Notes: generated by a model from the letters alone, not told the origin. A DNA stretch of 64,000 nt from Alphaproteobacteria bacterium (GCA_965249135.1 OZ252220.1:1856001-1920000); one strand, 5' to 3'. Shown: positions 53,730-64,000, counted from the stretch's first letter. Made by a program: numbers and translations.

Positions 53730-54526
53730 ATCATCTCGACGCCTTAGAGGGCCAAAGCGTCTACATCTTTCGGGAAGCCTTCAACAAGATCGACAAGCTG
53801 GCGATGCTATGGTCGATCGGGAAAGACAGCAACGTGCTGCTGTGGCTGGCACGCAAGGCCTTCTTCGGCCATGTGCCCTTTCCGGCCGTTCATATTGACA
53901 CGTCTTACAAGATTCCCGAGATGATCGAGTTCCGGGACCGTATGGCGAAGGAATGGAATTTGAATCTGATTGTCGGCCAGAACAAGGAGGCCTTGAAGGC
54001 TGGCATGGGGCCTGAGAAGGGACGCGTCGTATGCTGCGGTGCCTTGAAGACGGAAGGGCTGAAACAGACGATCGCGGCACATGGTTTCACGGGTATTTTT
54101 GTCGGCATTCGCCGTGATGAAGAAGGAACGCGCTCGAAGGAACGCGTTTTCAGCCCCCGGGGCAAACATGCGGAATGGGATTTTCGCGACCAGCCGCCAG
54201 AATTTTGGGATCAGTTCAAGACGGATTTTGTGCCGGGCACACACCTTCGGATCCATCCTTTGTTGCACTGGACGGAAGTGGATATCTGGCGCTACATCCG
54301 GCGCGAAAAGATCCCGGTCGTGGACCTCTACTTCGCGAAGAATGGACAGCGTTACCGCTCGTTAGGATGCGCCCCTTGCACGGGAACGATCGCCTCGACC
54401 GCTTCGACGGTTGACGAAATCATCGAGGAGCTCGAAACGACTAAAATCTCGGAACGCTCCGGCCGTGCACAGGATAAGGAATCCGAGGACGCCTTCGAGC
54501 GGCTCCGGGTCGAAGGATATATGTAA
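53726..54526 (+). CDS. cysD: Sulfate adenylyltransferase subunit 2
   Basis: [31 protein letters not shown]...WTE.DIW.YI, YRSLGC.PCT, GYM. Confidence 0.95.
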
Positions 54527-56469
54527 TGTCCGACCAGCCACTCGAGCCGAGTCGCGAAGATGAACTGCTTCGTGTCGTTATCGTCGGCCATGTCGATCAT
54601 GGAAAATCGACGCTCGTCGGGCGTCTCTTCTACGACACAGGCTCGCTTCCCGAAGGAAAGTTCGAGGCAATCCAGGCGATGTGCGAAAGCCGTGGTATGC
54701 CCTTCGAGTGGGCGTTCCTTATGGACGCGCTGCAGGCGGAGCGCGACCAGGGCATTACGATCGATAGTTCGCAGATTTGGTTTAAGACGACGAAGCGGGA
54801 CTACGTCATCATCGATGCGCCGGGGCACAAGGAATTCCTGAAAAACATGGTCAGCGGCGCCGCCAGCGCGGATGCCGCCCTTCTTGTGATCGACGCCCAC
54901 GAAGGCGTTCAGGAGCAGTCCCGTCGACACGGTTATCTTTTGCACCTCCTTGGTGTCCGTCAGGTCGTCGTCGCGATCAACAAGATGGACCTCGTGGGCT
55001 ATTCCCGCTCCCGTTTCATGGAGGTCGAGGGGGAATTCCGTAATTACCTTGCTGATATTGGCGTTGAGGCCCAGCACATCGTTCCCGTTTCCTCCCGTGA
55101 AGGCGATTGTATCGTCCACCGCTCCGAGAAGATGGACTGGCACGAAGGTCCGACCATCGTCGAGGCGTTCGACGCCTTCCAGCCACCGATGCCGTCGACG
55201 GAGCTGCCGCTTCGCCTTCCCATCCAGGACGTCTACAAGTTCGACCATCGCCGGATCATCGCCGGCCGGATCGAAAGCGGCCGGCTTCGCGTTGGCGATC
55301 GTCTGGTTTTGTCGCCCTCGAACAAGTCGGCCCGGGTGACCAGCATCGAGGACTGGAACGTCGCCACGCCGGTCCTTGCCACCAGCGCCGGTCAATCCGT
55401 CGGCATCACCCTTCAGGAGCAGATTTTCGTTGAGCGTGGCCAGATCGCAAGCCATACCGAGAATCTGCCCATCGAGACGAACGTCTTTCGGGCAAACCTT
55501 TTCTGGCTTGGCAAGAACCCCTTGCGGGTCGGCAAGCGCTACACGCTGAAGCTTCACACCGGCGAGCACAGGGCCCAGGTGCAATCAATCGATCGGATCG
55601 TTGACGTGACCGACCTTTCCTCCAGAGAGGGCGCGGAGGTTGGCAAGAATGCGGTGGCAGAAGTGACCCTGCGTACCCGTGGCCTCGTCGCGCTGGACGA
55701 ATTCTCCGACAACGCTCGAACCGGCCGCTTCGTCCTGGTCGAAGACTACACCATCGTCGGTGGCGGCATCATCAACATGAAAGGCTATCCGGATCAGCGG
55801 CCAAGCGTGACGCGTAAAACCACTTACGTTTTTCATGAAGATCACCAGGTGGCGGCGAACGCACGCTGGACCCTGAATGGACATCGCAGCGGGGTGCTGT
55901 GGCTGACCGGCCTTTCGGGTGCCGGCAAATCGACGCTGGCGCTTGAACTCGAAAGCCAGCTCTTCCGCAAGGGCTACCAGGTCTATGTCCTCGACGGCGA
56001 CAACTTGCGGAACGGGCTCAACGTGAATCTTGGATTCTCGCCGGAGGATCGGGCGGAAAACATTCGTCGGGCAGGCGAGGTGGCGGCCCTCTTCGCGGAA
56101 GCCGGCTTCATCGTGATCACCGCCTTCATCTCTCCCTATCGCGCCGATCGCGACCGCGTGCGAGCCATCGGCCCGGATAGTTTCCACGAGGTCTATGTGA
56201 AGGCGAGCCTCGAGACCTGCGAGAAGCGGGACCCGAAGGGGCTCTACCACAAGGCGCGGACCGGTGAGATCCCGGAATTCACCGGCATTTCTTCACCCTA
56301 CGAAGCGCCCGAGGAACCCGAGCTGGCCGTCGACACGGACCGGCTCACCGTCGAGGAGTCCGTCGCGCTTTTGCTTGAATATGTTGAGAAGAACCTGGTC
56401 TCGGGCAAAGGTTGGGAGGATCCGAACCGCCTTGGCTCCGTCAGCCAACTGGCCGCCCCGGGCCTCTGA
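54526..56469 (+). CDS. cysNC: Bifunctional sulfate adenylyltransferase subunit 1 / APS kinase (CysN-CysC, NodQ-like)
   Basis: [28 protein letters not shown]; C-terminal [41 protein letters not shown]. Confidence 0.95.
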
Positions 56470-56598: not shown

Positions 56599-56907
56599 AT
56601 GAAATTCAGGCCGCTACACGATCGGGCATTGATCCGGCCGCTCGAGTCTGATGAGAAGACGGCTGGCGGTATCATTATACCCGATACGGCGAAGGAAAAA
56701 CCTCAAGAGGGGGCAGTCATTGCGGTAGGCCCGGGCACCCGAGACGAAACGGGAAAGCTCGTCCCGCTCGACGTAAAGGCGGGAGATCGCGTGCTCTACG
56801 GGAAGTGGTCCGGCACCGAAGTGAAGGTCGACGGCGAGGACCTTTTGATCGTGAAGGAGTCCGACATCTTAGGTGTCGTGACGGGCGCAAAGGGCAAGAA
56901 GAAATAA
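56599..56907 (+). CDS. groES: Co-chaperonin GroES
   Basis: [47 protein letters not shown]. Confidence 0.98.
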
Positions 56908-58569
<1,662 letters not shown>

Positions 58570-58640: not shown

Positions 58641-59735
58641 CTATGCGCGATGGTCGGCGCCGATCGCTTCTCCCACCTTCATGAAGCCGTCGCGGTGGAG
58701 AAGGATAAGAAGGTCCTTCTTGATGCGCGGAACGAGGCTGGGTCCTTCGAAGATCAACGCCGTATAAAGTTGGACAAGGGAGGCGCCGGCCCGAATCTTC
58801 GCGTACGCGTCCTTTCCGTTTGCGATCCCGCCGGTGCCGATCAGGGGCACGTTTCCTTCCGTCCGGCGGTAGAAATCGGCCAGAAGCTGCGTAGAAAGCG
58901 CAAAAAGCGGCCGGCCACTCAAGCCCCCTTCCTCGCTTTGCCGCTTACTGGCAAGTCCCCCAGGCCGGCTTAGCGTCGTGTTGCCGACGATGAGGCCGTC
59001 CGCCAGCCCTTCGAGCGCCACGTCCGCAATGCCTTGGCGTTGCGCCTCTTCGAGGTCGGGGGCGACCTTAAGGAAGAGCGGCGTCTTCGCGCCATCCGCT
59101 TTCGCCATCGCAGCCCGGGTTTCGGTAAGGATGTTTCCGAGCGCCTCTTTTGCCTGCAGGTCGCGAAGCCCTGGCGTGTTCGGTGAGGAAACGTTAAGGA
59201 CGAGGTAGTCGGCAAGATGCACGAAGGTACGCGCGCCGGCTGCGTAATCCGCCGCGGCGTCCTCGCTTTCGCGGTTCTTGCCAAGGTTAATGCCGATGAC
59301 ACCCGCGGCACGGCGTTCATTCTCGTGCGTGTGACGAAGCCGTGTCACCACGCGGGTCATCCCTTCGCTGTTGAAGCCCAATCGGTTGATGACGGCGCCG
59401 TCCTTTCCAAGGCGGAAAAGACGCGGGCGCGGATTCCCCGCTTGCGGCTGTGGGGTCACGGTGCCGGCTTCGACGAAGCCGAAGCCGAAACGAAACATGG
59501 CATCCAAAGTTTCCGCGTTCTTGTCGAAACCGGCTGCCAGACCGATTGGGTTTTGAAAACGGAGGCCCAAGAGCTCGGTGGCAAGGGCGGGATCATCCGC
59601 CTCTTTCACCCTGGGTGCGAAGCCCCGGGCCAGGGCGCGGATGGTAAGCGTATGCGCCGTCTCCGGCGGTAGGAACCGCAAGAAAGGCGCGATTACATCA
59701 AAAACCGCAGCGAATCCGGAAACATGTGAGCCCAT
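58641..59735 (-). CDS. pyrD: Quinone-dependent dihydroorotate dehydrogenase (start approximate)
   Basis: PETAH, NPIGLAAGFDKN, GTVTP.PQ.GNPRPRLFRL, NRLGFN, NVSSPNTPGLR, KVAPD, GGLSG, AGASLVQLYT. Confidence 0.96.
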   Translation of the reverse strand: MGSHVSGFAAVFDVIAPFLRFLPPETAHTLTIRALARGFAPRVKEADDPALATELLGLRFQNPIGLAAGFDKNAETLDAMFRFGFGFVEAGTVTPQPQAGNPRPRLFRLGKDGAVINRLGFNSEGMTRVVTRLRHTHENERRAAGVIGINLGKNRESEDAAADYAAGARTFVHLADYLVLNVSSPNTPGLRDLQAKEALGNILTETRAAMAKADGAKTPLFLKVAPDLEEAQRQGIADVALEGLADGLIVGNTTLSRPGGLASKRQSEEGGLSGRPLFALSTQLLADFYRRTEGNVPLIGTGGIANGKDAYAKIRAGASLVQLYTALIFEGPSLVPRIKKDLLILLHRDGFMKVGEAIGADHRA

Positions 59736-59806
59736 GGCGGGATCAAACCTAGCGGAAAGCACGACCTCTGAACAGCAAGCGCGCTTGCACAAGGTTTCGG
59801 TAAGGA

Positions 59807-60034
59807 ATGTCTACTATGCTTGATGGCGTCATGGCGAAAGCATTCGACGACATCGATCGGGAAGATCCCTTCCACCTGTCGCTCAACTTACTCGAGGCGT
59901 ATCATCGCATGGGCTTGCTTCTCGTGCCGATCGAACCCTCTGAGGAAAAGGTCGAAGCCGGTGTTCTGGCCGGCGCACCGTCGGCGGAACTCGCCGAACG
60001 AATCTACAAGGCGATGACGCGCTCGACGGATTAG
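59807..60034 (+). CDS. Small hypothetical protein
   Basis: AAGGA directly upstream; LVPIEPSEE.VEAG...IYKAM pattern recalls small phage-type proteins; stop overlaps holin stop. Confidence 0.55.
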   Translation: MSTMLDGVMAKAFDDIDREDPFHLSLNLLEAYHRMGLLLVPIEPSEEKVEAGVLAGAPSAELAERIYKAMTRSTD

Positions 60035-60582
60035 CGATTAGTGCTTGCACTAAAACGCCGGGCAAGTTCACTCAGGAAATTCGGCGCTGAATGGCTGTTC
60101 GAAGTCTTTTCCTGGCTTCGCTTGTACACGTAAATCCCAAGAACGCTTAAGCCCACGATCCAGATCGCGCTTAACTGCCCAAGCGCGCCAATGACGCCGC
60201 CGGCGCGTGCCGGTTCAAAGGCGATCACATAGGCCACGGCTAGCATCTGGGCGAACCAGGTAAAGGCCAGGATGTAGCCGAAGGTCGGGCGCATCCGCCG
60301 CACATAGCCATCCTCCGAGCGCGCCTCCGCACGGATCGTTTGATTGATCTCGCTTAGGATCTTTGCTTCCCGTTCCGCATCGATCGCCACCATCCGTTCG
60401 ACGTGGCGGTTCGCTTCGCTTACGACTTCCGGGGAGATCGTTCCTTTTTCGATCGCCGAGCCGACCCCGTCGAGGGCATCGGCCGCCGATTTCGCGATCG
60501 GATGATCGAGCCTGCCAAGGGCGCTGCCTACCGTTTTTACGAGCAGCGGCAGGCCGATCTGGGCGAGAAGGGCCGCCAGCAT
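60031..60582 (-). CDS. Holin of 3TM type (GTA_holin_3TM-like)
   Basis: IN.TIRAE..S.D.YVRRMRPTFGY, two hydrophobic helices, LSVLGIYVYKRS.EK. Confidence 0.82.
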   Translation of the reverse strand: MLAALLAQIGLPLLVKTVGSALGRLDHPIAKSAADALDGVGSAIEKGTISPEVVSEANRHVERMVAIDAEREAKILSEINQTIRAEARSEDGYVRRMRPTFGYILAFTWFAQMLAVAYVIAFEPARAGGVIGALGQLSAIWIVGLSVLGIYVYKRSQEKTSNSHSAPNFLSELARRFSASTNR

Positions 60583-61015
60583 CTAGGCATCCTCCCGGTA
60601 GTAGAGGTGGCTCCCGAAGGTGACGGCGGGCGTTCGCCCCTGGGCCCAGACGGGAAACGCATCCTCGGAATGAAAGCGCGTCGCACCTTGGGTCGGGTCC
60701 CTTAACACGCCGGCAAGCGCCCGCCTGGCGATACGGGAGGCAAGCCTGAAAAGGGCACGCGTCCTTGTGGGCGTCGGGCGGGGTCCGGGCCTTCCCGATC
60801 CGTTCCTCGCAAAGGATTTCAAAGTTTTTTCCGTCCGTTCGGTTCGTCATTTCCAGTTGGGCTCGGTTCAGGATCGCGGCGGCGATCGCCTCCATGTTGC
60901 GGACGTTTCCCCGCTTTCCTTGACACCCCTTCGCGCTTTCCGCGTAGATGGCTTCGGCGAGCAAACGGGTAAGCCGTTGGCGCTCGCTTTCCGGAAATTT
61001 GCGTCTTCTTTTCAA
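60583..61015 (-). pseudogene. Cell wall hydrolase (SleB/Hydrolase_2-like endolysin), frameshifted
   Basis: N-half LAEAIYAE...MEAIAAAILNR in one frame, C-half FRLASRIARRALAG.LRDPT.GATRFH...P.WA.GR.P..TFGSHLYY in the +1 frame; TTG start overlaps upstream TGA. Confidence 0.8.
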
Positions 61016-61332
61016 CGGTGCCTCTGAATTTGATTGTCGAGCTTGTCTTCGATCCGCTGCAGATGGCGCGTGAGCCGAATCTCCACGTCCTTGAGGCACG
61101 CCATCGAGGCATAGGATTTCGCGACTTCCAGCTTGAAGGCGGAGAGACTCTCCCGGTGCTCGTCGATTCCTTCCTCGAGCAAGTGATGGAACCGAAAAAG
61201 AGATGCCTGCCCTTCGCTCCGGGCGCGCCAGATAAGCCAGAAGAGTCCGGCAAACGTTGGGATCTCGACACCGGTAATCCACCAGATGAGATTGATATCC
61301 CAGTGAAACCCCATCCCAGTCTCCCTGTTCAA
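61012..61332 (-). CDS. Phage-associated small membrane/coiled-coil protein
   Basis: WWITGVEIP..AGLFWLIW TM segment, then L..FKLEVAKSYAS...LKDVE.RL..HL.RIE.KLD; overlaps both neighbours by 4 nt. Confidence 0.7.
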   Translation of the reverse strand: MNRETGMGFHWDINLIWWITGVEIPTFAGLFWLIWRARSEGQASLFRFHHLLEEGIDEHRESLSAFKLEVAKSYASMACLKDVEIRLTRHLQRIEDKLDNQIQRHR

Positions 61333-62801
61333 ATTTCGAAATTCGTCTTTGCAACGACACTTTGTGCGCCTCGCCAGTCCCGCCGGGTTGGTGCCGGCGT
61401 CACGGGAAGGCGGACCGGTTCGGCGAGTAGGCAGCCACTCACCGCATCCAGGCCGTCATCCTGAACGTCGATGCCGGGCTGCCATTCCCGCATTTCCGTG
61501 ATGAACGGGCTTGCCCAGACGCTGCGGTGGGCATGCAAGGCCCCCGCCGCGAGTACGGCGTCGAACACATCCAGGATTCGAAAATCCTTGGCATGGGTCG
61601 AGACCGCCTCAAGAACGCTCGTGCCGAGGTCGGCCATCGCAAGCTCCCGGCGCAGCAATCCGGGCAGAAAGCGTCCAAGCCCATTCGTTTCCAGCGATAG
61701 GCTTGGGAGATAAAGCCCCTTAAGAAATTCAACGACCTGACGGCAGAGTTGTGTTGCCTCATCGAGCTCGGAATCCGGATCCCAGGCAAAGTAGTGAACG
61801 CGATGCAGCCAATACCCGCCATCCTCATCCGTATAGACGGCAGCGACGACGTTCCTGTCCCCGCGCGCCGGCGCGCCGAAGGCTGGATCCCACCAGCAAC
61901 TCGCGGAAACGAGGCGCTTTCCTTCGAGGGTGAGGCTCGCCACCTTGTTTGATTCGCGATAATCGAGCTCGCCTTCATAAAGACGCAATCGGTCGGGATC
62001 GAGACGGCTCTCCATCGCGTTTACTTCCTCGAGCATCATTTGACTCGCGAACTTGTTCGGTCCGCTTCGTCGCTCGATCGCCGCGATTTTCTGCTTCGAG
62101 AAACGCTTCGGCCAACGGCTTCTTCCATTTTCGTCGAATAGAGGAAGCTCCAGACGCTTGAAGCCGTCGAGGTAGGGTTGCGTCTCCTCGGCTTCCGGCC
62201 GCGCTTGTTCGGCATAGATCGTGTAATAGGTGTGCGGCGTACCGACGTATAGTTGCAAACCACCGGGTACGAGTACGTAGTCGATCTCGGCGAGTTTCGT
62301 ACGCAGATTGGCCCGCTTGGGAACGGAGTCGGAAGTGTTCGGTACTTCAACATCGTCACAAAGAACGATGTCTGCCCGGCTTCCGGTCACGTTCGCATTG
62401 ATTCCGCGCCCCAACATGGAAGGATCACGAAGTCGCATACGACGATTAACGGTAAATTGCGAGGCTGCCCACTGATCTGCGCGTTTTGGTTTTAGGCCCC
62501 GCGTAAGGGGATGGCGCTCGATGATCTGTTTGACGTTGCGGACCATCTTGTTTGCCAGCTCCTGCTCGGCAGCAAGGACCAGAATCCGCAAGTTTGAATT
62601 TTTGGCGAGCAGCCAGGCGGAAAAAAGTCCGGCGATTGTCGACTTCCCACTGTCTCGAAAGGCAAGCAGTAGAAGCTCGCGATCCCCATTTTTCCAGCGT
62701 GCGTCCAGCCAGTTTGCAATCTCCAGATGCAGCTTTGGGGTGGATAAGGATTGAAGGCGATTCCAGAGCCAGACGAATTCCGGAAATGTCGGTCCGCTCA
62801 T
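61329..62801 (-). CDS. Phage terminase large subunit (T7 gp19-like)
   Basis: Walker A AFRDSGKST, TGSRAD, Walker B IVLCDDVE, VGTPH..TIY, F.SQMML, nuclease acidic motifs WWDPAFG, LETNG, DDGLDA. Confidence 0.9.
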   Translation of the reverse strand: MSGPTFPEFVWLWNRLQSLSTPKLHLEIANWLDARWKNGDRELLLLAFRDSGKSTIAGLFSAWLLAKNSNLRILVLAAEQELANKMVRNVKQIIERHPLTRGLKPKRADQWAASQFTVNRRMRLRDPSMLGRGINANVTGSRADIVLCDDVEVPNTSDSVPKRANLRTKLAEIDYVLVPGGLQLYVGTPHTYYTIYAEQARPEAEETQPYLDGFKRLELPLFDENGRSRWPKRFSKQKIAAIERRSGPNKFASQMMLEEVNAMESRLDPDRLRLYEGELDYRESNKVASLTLEGKRLVSASCWWDPAFGAPARGDRNVVAAVYTDEDGGYWLHRVHYFAWDPDSELDEATQLCRQVVEFLKGLYLPSLSLETNGLGRFLPGLLRRELAMADLGTSVLEAVSTHAKDFRILDVFDAVLAAGALHAHRSVWASPFITEMREWQPGIDVQDDGLDAVSGCLLAEPVRLPVTPAPTRRDWRGAQSVVAKTNFEI

Positions 62802-63097
62802 TCCTCCTCCACCATCTTGACGAGCGCGGCTCGTGCTTCGGCGATCAGTTGCGACATGTCTTCGGTGGCTGCCTCGTCGTCGTCCCCGTTCACCTCCGCC
62901 CAGCGGGCCATGCGGATCAACAGCTCCATATGGGCGAGCGCCGCTTTACAGGCAACGTGGTGGGCCGCAAAGCCTTTTGGGTCCTTCGGCTGCTGTTCGG
63001 TGGCGAAATGACGATAGCCACTCAGCGCCTTATCCAGCAGGCTGGGAAGCGCGGCGTGAACCCGCTTCCGCAGGGCCGCCATGTCTTTCACCATCAC
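62798..63097 (-). CDS. Hypothetical helical protein directly upstream of terL (possible small terminase)
   Basis: 99 aa, KGFAAHH.ACKAALAH.ELL; 4-nt overlaps with tail fibre gene and terL; function inferred from position only. Confidence 0.6.
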   Translation of the reverse strand: MMVKDMAALRKRVHAALPSLLDKALSGYRHFATEQQPKDPKGFAAHHVACKAALAHMELLIRMARWAEVNGDDDEAATEDMSQLIAEARAALVKMVEEE

Positions 63098-64000
63098 ACT
63101 GGCGCCGTGGCGAACAACAGGATCGCGATGTCACGGGTGCTGGCGAGCCGGTTCTCGATATAAAGCTTGCCGTCCGTATGGGCTGAATAGGTGATCGTGT
63201 TGGGATTTCCCGTCGTCCCGGTCAAGGCGCCGGTCGTCGATTCGACGCCGGTGATGTTCGCAATCAGGTCACAAAAGGGGAAGGTCGCCACCCGCCAAGA
63301 GAAGAGCGCACCTGCCGAATCCCCCAACTGGTTGAGTCCAAAGGCAAGCGTGATTCCACCATTGGCAGGTGGCGTAAAGCTGGTTGCCGTATCCGTCGCG
63401 AGGGAAAATGTCTGGAAGTCCACCTTGGTCCCCGCCAGCGTCTTCAGGATTTCCCAGCCAAGGTCGGTACCGGCGGCATTGACTTTCAGCACCTGATCCG
63501 CCGTTCCAAGCGCCAGTCGCTGGGCGGCCGAAGCGCCTCGGGCAACAAGATCTCCTTGCGTCGTAAGAAGATCGAGTTCGTTACCGGAAACCGTGATTTC
63601 GTTCGCATCCGAAGAAAGACCGACACCACTGCCGGCGACAAGGGATTTGAAGCGAAGGGTAACCCCGGATTTTTGCGCGAAAACTCCCTCGCCGCCGCCC
63701 AGGTTGAGACCGTCGTTCGACTCACCGCCAAGATCGGGATCGGCTTGCGTCGCGGCCCGGTCATAAACCGCCGGTTCACCGAACTGTCCGAAGCTAAGCA
63801 GCTTGTCTGCCCGGGTTGCGACCGGTGGCAAAGACATATCCGTGTCGATGTCGTGTACATCTTGGTGAAGCGCGTCCTGGGCAACGCTTTCCACCGTTTG
63901 TACAAACATCGTAAGTTTATCGAGCTCCTCGTTGATGATAGAGGCACGGAAATCTCCCCCTTCCTGAAAATCCGTGCTGCGCGCGACCGGCATGTCCCGG
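63094..64000 (-). CDS. Phage tail fibre protein (T7 gp17-like N-terminal region), 5'-truncated by window
   Basis: R.TDF..GG.FRA..IN.ELD.L...VQ anchor-type motif; fibre motifs N.GGGEGVFAQKSG..L.FKSL.AG and TTQGDL...QRLALGT..QVLKV.......W. Confidence 0.8.
   Translation of the reverse strand, partial: RDMPVARSTDFQEGGDFRASIINEELDKLTMFVQTVESVAQDALHQDVHDIDTDMSLPPVATRADKLLSFGQFGEPAVYDRAATQADPDLGGESNDGLNLGGGEGVFAQKSGVTLRFKSLVAGSGVGLSSDANEITVSGNELDLLTTQGDLVARGASAAQRLALGTADQVLKVNAAGTDLGWEILKTLAGTKVDFQTFSLATDTATSFTPPANGGITLAFGLNQLGDSAGALFSWRVATFPFCDLIANITGVESTTGALTGTTGNPNTITYSAHTDGKLYIENRLASTRDIAILLFATAPV

Follow-up and report, generated by a model that had tools for sequence, protein, structure and literature searches.

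A probably domesticated, short-tailed-phage-derived particle locus between lysS and pyrD in Alphaproteobacteria

Gene Content and Setting of the Locus

Positions 60031-64000 of a 64,000-nt stretch of Alphaproteobacteria bacterium DNA (GCA_965249135.1, OZ252220.1:1856001-1920000; "the window" is this whole stretch) hold a run of phage-type genes next to the host gene pyrD. The source genome (G000, 98.75% complete) is one contig of 2.12 Mb, on which the window is G000:C1:1856001-1920000, and on this contig the run proves to be the last third of a locus of ~13.2 kb (G000:C1:1916031-1929187) bounded by pyrD and a class-I lysS. This locus, which we consider probably a domesticated element rather than a prophage, is the subject of the present analysis; coordinates given as L001 refer to the G000 locus sequence, where L001:2735 is window position 60735 and L001:13456 is G000:C1:1927456.

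All six genes at 60031-64000 lie on the minus strand, and neighbours share 4-nt ATGA/TTGA overlaps or abut as TAG-ATG. An initial annotation of the window had described them as a tightly coupled operon adjoining pyrD: the positions, strand and 4-nt overlaps agree with our analysis, as does the neighbour (pyrD, dihydroorotate dehydrogenase, 58641-59792, minus strand; PF01180, E 7e-85), and the one departure is the cell-wall hydrolase gene, which is split over two frames instead of forming a single open reading frame (ORF). The packaging genes comprise an intact T7-type large terminase, TerL (490 aa; 61329-62801; NF033889 termin_lrg_T7, E 1e-126, 423 bits against a cut-off of 150; phrog_38, E 3e-70), and a 99-aa helical protein (62798-63097; phrog_31793, a family without assigned function, E 1.4e-26) whose gene overlaps both neighbours by 4 nt and which, from its T7 gp18-like position, is the probable small terminase, TerS. 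The 378-aa tail fibre (G000:C1:1919094-1920230, that is, window 63094 to the window-equivalent 64230; phrog_1640 tail protein, E 1.3e-36, residues 4-116) has its first 302 codons inside the window; its N-terminal 120 aa form a T7-type adaptor domain, and its conservation in other families is limited to the N-terminal ~150 aa.

On the pyrD side of TerL are a 106-aa membrane/coiled-coil protein (61012-61332; phrog_29007, a family without assigned function, E 1.5e-26), retained 3' of TerL in most related loci and by its position perhaps spanin- or Rz-like; the broken gene for the SleB/Hydrolase_2-like hydrolase (60583-61015; C-terminal piece PF07486, E 1.3e-5); and a 183-aa holin with three transmembrane segments (60031-60582; PF11351, E 4e-12). 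The last of these had been taken as a sign of a gene transfer agent (GTA), a claim that falls away: "GTA-type" is the Pfam name only, the same protein matches the PHROG holin family phrog_3427 (E 1.5e-10), and a full-text literature search for that name listed only two preprints, both on phages, one of them a freshwater SAR11 phage. The family occurs in true phages too and is no evidence for a GTA. Between holin and pyrD lies a 75-aa ORF on the plus strand (59807-60034; no Pfam match), which is kept in the genus at 51-72% identity and has weaker matches in other families (L046, L049, L058, L101, L153).

The portal, capsid and tail-tube genes that the initial annotation proposed to look for beyond the window are all there, followed by host lysS. 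Still on the minus strand, and moving away from the fibre, they begin with a 157-aa gene (G000:C1:1920279-1920752; phrog_418 internal virion protein, E 0.008), tail tube B, the nozzle (G000:C1:1920752-1922657), and tail tube A (G000:C1:1922657-1923226), the two tubes identified by PHROG/Pfam matches. A 95-aa gene (p95; G000:C1:1923299-1923586) is followed by the capsid (G000:C1:1923571-1924389; PF19821, E 2e-81), a scaffold of the T7 family PF05396 (G000:C1:1924527-1925309), a 113-aa gene with a weak Bbp19-like match (p113; G000:C1:1925291-1925632), the portal (G000:C1 about 1925619-1927223; PF12236, E 4e-138) and a 72-aa ORF (G000:C1:1927226-1927444).

Two early genes stand apart from this late operon behind a terminator with a 12-bp stem (G000:C1:1927530-1927501) and a promoter-like site, TTGACG-17-TATATT (G000:C1:1927587-1927559), both on the minus strand. 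These genes, of 154 aa (G000:C1:1927584-1928048) and 121 aa (G000:C1:1928045-1928410), are also on the minus strand and share an ATGA overlap; divergent from the latter, on the plus strand, is a 210-aa repressor (G000:C1:1928555-1929187) with a helix-turn-helix and a Peptidase_S24 domain (PF00717, E 1e-25; phrog_4 transcriptional repressor, E 5e-30). Class-I lysS lies beyond it. A perfect tandem repeat of two 17-nt units, CTTTCCCGAAAGCCGAT, occupies L001:13456-13489 (G000:C1:1927456-1927489) between the terminator and the 72-aa ORF, and each unit includes a small palindrome.

No recombination or replication functions accompany these genes. A tRNA search of locus and flanks was empty, a search for flanking direct (att) repeats returned short chance repeats only, and the nearest PF00589 recombinase in G000 is ~270 kb from the locus, all of which bears out what had been said of the window; the forecast that neither an integrase nor a replication module would follow holds as far as lysS. 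There is no polymerase among the genes that fill the 13.2-kb pyrD-lysS interval; a genome-wide search with PF00940 (T7 RNA polymerase) also gave no match, although here the control was equally silent and the result is uninformative alone. The host-like composition noted for the window extends over the locus, at a G+C content of 0.57-0.61 with flanks alike. Ordinary host genes occupy window positions 54526-56469 and 56599-58569 upstream of pyrD; a 647-aa ORF there is probably, judged by translation (a GTP-binding N-terminal part and a loop motif near the C-terminal part), a fused CysN/CysC-type sulfate adenylyltransferase/APS kinase, and groES and groEL, named by translation and length, are among the genes of this region.

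Phage Relatives of the Structural Genes

The head and tail module is nearest to the Pelagibacter phage EXVC031P Hodr and next to HTVC010P-type phages (~34-35 kb genomes), with identities of 48.5-50% for the capsid, 37-38% for the portal, 33-36% for the nozzle and 30% for tail tube A, and further matches for p113 (40%), p95 (38%), the scaffold (23%) and the hydrolase (27%). For TerL the best match among 50,697 phage records is only 28% identical, and the TerL of Hodr gave no match to it at E 0.01.

The gene order is that of T7 (portal, scaffold, capsid, tube A, tube B, the core proteins where present, fibre, TerS, TerL), and TerL (NF033889), scaffold (PF05396) and the N-terminal domain of the fibre are of T7 type. 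Unlike T7 and its relatives (Autographivirales), the locus is without RNA or DNA polymerase and without core proteins of gp15/gp16 size, and its lysis genes stand at the locus end. We therefore retain the T7-like character proposed initially for TerL, the fibre N-terminal domain and the gene order, and revise it for the head/tail module: the sequences indicate a head and tail-tube module of Hodr/HTVC010P type combined with a T7-like TerS-TerL pair and gene order.

Hodr itself is a full 34-kb phage with replication genes, whereas the locus is ~13 kb between host genes. The nozzle gene of Hodr is followed by genes of 159, 784 and 1247 aa; the sole gene between nozzle and fibre in the locus is the 157-aa gene, whose product does not align with the 159-aa Hodr protein. 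Since Hodr has the 784- and 1247-aa genes where the locus keeps only this one, the large ejection proteins are missing from it.

A second T7-like gene set extends over ~35 kb of contig C7 of the sister species G001 (L228, L233, L237). Its portal, capsid and nozzle share 32, 34 and 32% identity with those of the locus studied, and it may be a true podovirus prophage.

Distribution and Inheritance

The question of how widely the locus is found was addressed with a class sample of 401 Alphaproteobacteria genomes from 307 genera (TerL threshold E<=1e-60). TerL is present in 57 genomes and 47 genera, nearly always in one copy per genome, with an uninterrupted frame in 53 of the 57 and a broken one in four (G097, G189, G375 and G092). 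The capsid gene is found in more than 583 species genomes; the best 80 of these, examined as named genomes, include Azospirillum (among them A. lipoferum Sp59b), Skermanella, Niveispirillum, Oleisolibacter, Telmatospirillum, Caenispirillum, Defluviicoccus, Roseospira and Terasakiella as well as many metagenome-assembled genomes. In this best-80 set pyrD adjoins the locus in 18 genomes and lysS in 10, and 38 carry the repressor. IMG/VR lists ~18-kb "proviruses" of this kind, which run from repressor to hydrolase without further module.

The genomic surroundings are conserved well beyond the genus. The order to which G000 belongs consists of one genus with six species genomes; TerL is found in five of the six, and the synteny GGDEF-lysS-locus-pyrD-groEL is complete in G002 and G005 and partial, at contig ends, in G004 and G001. 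Most of the 20 loci studied from other families share the gene order; pyrD is at the lysis end in six of the 20 and lysS at the repressor end in one, and the Telmatospirillum locus (L108) has both the pyrD and the lysS flanks, like G000. The same chromosomal site is thus occupied in families whose TerL proteins are only 40-67% identical, and the synteny with pyrD that the initial annotation proposed to examine is seen both in the genus and across distant families.

Phylogenetic analysis of TerL (54 rows) placed 12 of the 14 host families with several members in one clade each. Mapping the families on the tree takes 13 label changes, which is the minimum, against a mean of 27.0 when labels were shuffled, and none of 200 shuffles came as low; given that relatives are non-independent, this shows clustering and is not a formal test of co-speciation. 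The tree comparison proposed in the initial annotation thus shows TerL grouping by host family.

Several variant layouts were observed. In many relatives, outside this genus, 1.8-4.7 kb of extra DNA separates scaffold and capsid (for example L051:2563-7309, L055:13393-15913, L056:13489-15300 and the Azospirillum loci L071, L095 and L098). The capsid is not preceded by portal and scaffold in L059 and L060 (genomes G284 and G131) or in the Azospirillum loci L067, L070 and L072-L074; in G284 and G131 pyrD abuts the capsid gene. These layouts suggest that the gene set has been split or rearranged. In G005 an additional ~1.4 kb separates pyrD from the 75-aa ORF (L016:2885-4260); it holds small ORFs of 121 and 152 aa, which may be an inserted two-gene cassette.

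Selection on the Locus

Ratios of non-synonymous to synonymous substitution rates (dN/dS) were calculated by the Nei-Gojobori method for four genus pairs. Among the structural and packaging genes they are lowest in the capsid (0.04-0.05) and portal (0.066), followed by TerL (0.07-0.09), tail tube A (0.06-0.10), the nozzle (0.09-0.13), the fibre (0.07-0.17) and the probable TerS (0.11-0.26). The repressor is similarly constrained (0.05-0.06), with values of 0.09-0.15 for the 121-aa gene, 0.14-0.31 for the 154-aa gene, 0.03-0.17 for the 106-aa gene and 0.08-0.22 for the holin; the hydrolase, at 0.28-0.43, is the fastest-evolving gene of the locus. The flanking genes groEL (0.07-0.10), lysS (0.05-0.08) and pyrD (0.16-0.24) have comparable values, and dS in the locus matches that of the flanks (for G004-G005, 0.30-0.51 in the locus against 0.25-0.39 in the flanks). 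The dN/dS comparison recommended in the initial annotation thus speaks for long-term constraint, at 0.03-0.17 for most genes.

Lesions in G000 and its Relatives

The copy in G000 carries two frameshifts. Through a 2-base loss in a GT run the nozzle frame stops after 173 codons, with the rest in another frame, where relatives have 634-635 aa. The hydrolase gene, a single ORF of 141-144 aa in G002, G004, G005 and G001, goes out of frame after about codon 93 because of one additional base at window 60735.

Contigs of four public runs (X1, X4, X6 and X8) were compared with L001:2500-8800. The 24 public runs listed included no RNA run. X1 shows no difference from G000, of which it may be the source. 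X4, X6 and X8 belong to three further studies and share about 98.4-98.7% identity with G000; all three have two extra letters behind L001:8282 in a GT run, which restores a nozzle ORF of 635 codons, and are without the base at L001:2735, which restores a hydrolase frame of 143 codons. Because these strains differ from G000 at both sites, the two frameshifts are private to the G000 strain. The three strains have lesions of their own: in common they carry CAA>TAA at hydrolase codon 53, and X8 has two further single-base losses, one leading to a stop at codon 59 of TerS and the other to a stop at codon 185 of the nozzle gene.

Only two of the six species of the genus look intact, G002 and G004 being so in all genes seen. 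In G001 the repressor, the 121- and 154-aa genes and the terminator stand at one contig end and the run from the fibre (from residue 99) to the holin and pyrD at another, which fits an internal deletion, an assembly gap being the alternative. G003 has a different small ORF in place of the 121-aa gene. Most likely the copy in G000 no longer works as a system and is unable to form a tail; loss of the system is under way throughout the genus, by different lesions in different strains.

Promoter Region and Early Proteins

The 144-nt divergent promoter region between the repressor and 121-aa genes has AGGAAT palindromes around a TTGATA/TTGACA box. In 60 distinct related promoter regions AGGAA/TTCCT motifs were observed 103 times against 17 in shuffles, and a perfect alphaproteobacterial LexA box (GTTC-N7-GTTC) occurs in 25 of these regions, where shuffled sequences average 0.22. 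Within L001 the pattern has 28 one-mismatch matches where 21 are expected, none of them perfect and none in the promoter region. The S24 repressor, the AGGAA motifs and the LexA boxes of related promoter regions make it likely, on the sequences, that the locus is induced by DNA damage through self-cleavage of the repressor.

The 121-aa protein was modelled with a mean predicted local distance difference test (pLDDT) value of 87, and has phage 21 Q (Z 5.9) as its best fold match, followed by AlpA (Z 5.3) and sigma region 4 (Z about 5); a weak Atlas lead goes to a Phage_antitermQ cluster (score 0.80). Of 84 distinct related loci, 34 have a hairpin like the early/late terminator. Each of these observations is weak alone; taken together, the folds, the Atlas lead, the promoter-like site with its terminator and the hairpins suggest Q-type antitermination by the modelled protein. 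The 154-aa model (pLDDT 80) has TseH (Z 7.2), YiiX (Z 5.8) and 3kw0 (Z 5.6) as its best fold matches, and a weak Atlas lead (score 0.78) connects it with viral hydrolases of YiiX type. All 47 sequences compared have His41 and Cys114. The protein may be a permuted NlpC/P60-like Cys/His hydrolase of the YiiX/TseH (Peptidase_C92) kind, a cell-wall peptidase for lysis or entry. Foldseek against the PDB found nothing at E<=0.001 for either protein, and neither has a Pfam or PHROG match.

Discussion

The locus is a phage structural gene set between host genes, without integrase, att sites or replication genes, and the view that it is no recent prophage can be upheld. We hold with high confidence that it is a vertically inherited, domesticated, podovirus-derived particle locus: synteny, selection and the TerL tree agree with the vertically inherited podovirus system suggested earlier, a description that now has to accommodate the frameshifted copy in this strain and the presence of the locus's own CI/LexA-type repressor. 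Probably, then, a short-tailed-phage-derived particle element was already in place between lysS and pyrD when many alphaproteobacterial families had yet to diverge, and has been passed on there under purifying selection, with the G000 copy frameshifted. Chromosomal structural, packaging and lysis genes without replication or integration genes, vertical inheritance and purifying selection are all features by which GTAs are recognized; a complete open gene set, a further such feature, is lacking in G000 with its nozzle and hydrolase frameshifts. Judged from the genes, a GTA-like function is a real possibility that nevertheless stays short of an even expectation.

In a working copy, the divergently transcribed repressor would hold the promoter shut through AGGAA-type operators. 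DNA damage would lead to RecA-stimulated self-cleavage of the repressor and release of the two early genes, after which the 121-aa protein would let RNA polymerase read through the strong terminator into the late operon. TerS and TerL would then fill the heads, short tails would be added, and holin and hydrolase would lyse the cell. With no large ejection proteins, delivery of the DNA would depend on uptake genes of the recipient, as with the GTA of Rhodobacter capsulatus (RcGTA); ComEC and DprA are present in G000, and also in 10-11 of 14 control genomes, which gives this observation little weight.

Other readings of the same genes have to be considered. The lesions invite the thought of a cryptic prophage remnant in slow decay, without present function, whose apparent conservation comes only from deletions that have not yet reached the locus: G000 has its two frameshifts, X4, X6 and X8 other lesions, G005 a portal deletion and G001 and G003 missing parts, TerL is broken in four of 57 genomes, and the ejection proteins are absent. 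A remnant would not, however, hold about 15 genes open over such divergence, at dN/dS values (0.03-0.17) equal to those of housekeeping neighbours with the same dS, nor would it be expected at one chromosomal site across families with 40-67% TerL identity and with the TerL frame uninterrupted in 53 of 57; we regard this explanation as improbable. A mobile temperate phage or satellite, inserted repeatedly beside pyrD or lysS with a recombinase acting in trans, would account for the CI-type repressor and for the ~18-kb versions listed as proviruses in IMG/VR, but the latter extend from repressor to hydrolase and include no extra module. Integrase, att repeat and tRNA are all lacking, TerL groups by host family, locus and flanks have the same dS and nearly every genome carries a single copy, so that hardly any room is left for this reading.

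The host might instead keep the particle for a use other than transfer, either as an SOS-induced killing or lysis device of pyocin or AlpA type, releasing DNA or public goods, or as an anti-phage decoy that packages or blocks phage DNA. With its S24 repressor followed by a Q/AlpA-like early gene, the locus is similar to the AlpR-AlpA and PrtR-PrtN switches, the AlpA fold being matched at Z 5.3, and the missing ejection proteins make DNA delivery doubtful. Against this stand portal, TerS and TerL, which are among the best-conserved genes and sensible only if DNA is packaged, as well as the retained fibre and complete tail tube; we consider a non-transfer use rather unlikely.

A number of observations count against a domesticated, transfer-competent element and deserve to be set together. 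The locus is known here from its genes alone, while the GTA class is defined by random packaging and transfer of host DNA, in pieces too short to include the entire locus; and the nearest phages have ~34 kb, so that all 13 kb of the locus would fit into a head of full size, unlike the heads of classical GTAs. The hydrolase is dead in all four strains examined, through two independent lesions, and the 40 within-species substitutions listed, out of 142, comprise 24 non-synonymous, 15 synonymous and one intergenic change. In G005, which is 99% complete, a clean deletion has removed the portal gene together with most of the 113-aa gene (the rest of that genome gave no portal match); capsid, portal and nozzle of the locus family were not found in the G001 assembly; and the G003 assembly (88% complete) is without the structural genes, all that it holds of the locus being the repressor and a partial holin, at contig ends. 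Decay within the genus is as compatible with a dying element as with a domesticated one. On the regulatory side, the LexA box is absent from the promoter region in this genus, the Z values of the early-protein folds are all below 8, where chance matches are possible, and profile searches of PDB sequences with the 121- and 154-aa proteins returned nothing.

The domesticated particle element remains our preferred explanation, and it can be extended to a bolder proposal, which we put forward only tentatively: a second, independently domesticated GTA lineage of podovirus type (Hodr/T7-like) at the lysS-pyrD site, far older than the carrier families, with a DNA-damage switch built from the S24 repressor and a Q/AlpA-like antiterminator. 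Such a lineage would have shed its ejectosome, with entry by ComEC/DprA of the recipient, and would divide the class with the RcGTA type; strain-by-strain loss, as in this genus, would be expected if non-producers win within populations. What is new in the present genus is the strain-private nozzle and hydrolase frameshifts, the other lesions in three near-identical strains and the intact state of two of six species. The genus is a rare case in which the loss of such a system can be followed, which bears on the upkeep of a lethal "altruistic" trait.

Comparison with Known Systems

Only a handful of GTA lineages are known to us, and all those described from Alphaproteobacteria are siphovirus-derived. 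The locus resembles the RcGTA type (Rhodobacter capsulatus, Caulobacter; Rhodogtaviriformidae) in being a chromosomal set for head, tail, packaging and lysis without replication or integration genes, in vertical inheritance under purifying selection, in a holin of the same Pfam family and in the lack of large ejection machinery. The two are not homologous, however: capsid PF19821, portal PF12236, podovirus tail tubes and a T7-type TerL stand here against a siphovirus HK97-type set, and neither GTA_TIM (PF13547, RcGTA g15) nor the HK97-type capsid PF05065 was found in G000, with a Caulobacter control positive for both. Control differs as well, since RcGTA is governed by CtrA/GafA whereas the locus has its own S24 repressor. 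Within the class sample GTA_TIM is present in 33 of 401 genomes, the podovirus-type TerL in 57 and both together in none, with one family code (f112) shared; resting on a single marker in related genomes, this is a pattern and not a test.

With temperate prophages the locus shares the CI/LexA-type repressor, but it lacks integrase and att sites. It is likewise without the integrase or replication gene of phage satellites (phage-inducible chromosomal islands and their capsid-forming kind), and where these take their tail genes from a helper phage it has its own tail tubes and fibre. Tailocins consist of a tail only, whereas capsid, portal, scaffold, TerS and TerL are present here and conserved. 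The AlpR-AlpA and PrtR-PrtN systems of Pseudomonas are SOS-controlled switches for lysis and tailocins, and have in common with the locus a LexA-like S24 repressor beside a small positive regulator of a lytic gene set, a weak, fold-based likeness; unlike what the packaging genes imply here, those systems form no DNA-filled heads.

Particles containing ~10 kb of DNA from Azospirillum, a genus that carries the locus, are described as presumed GTAs whose genes are only tentatively assigned (PMC3899980, PMC3245306), and the small mitomycin-induced particles of A. lipoferum are presented there as never having had their genes pinned down (PMC3899980). A link between the latter and the locus is possible. 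The Azospirillum particles are reportedly siphovirus-like and, if so, would differ from what the locus encodes.

A literature search, with bioRxiv supplements outside its coverage, did not turn up any paper describing a T7/Hodr-like GTA from Alphaproteobacteria. Elsewhere, a podovirus-derived GTA-like system has a precedent in FpGTA, a podovirus-like GTA-like element of Faecalibacterium prausnitzii, a member of the Firmicutes, with two operons, particles and 8-9 kb of packaged DNA shown (Nat Commun 2026, PMC12946183). Were the reading proposed here true, a podovirus-derived particle locus carried over very long times by hundreds of species, some of them culturable, plant-associated hosts suited to testing, would mean that the class which has the RcGTA type tamed a phage twice, each time independently.

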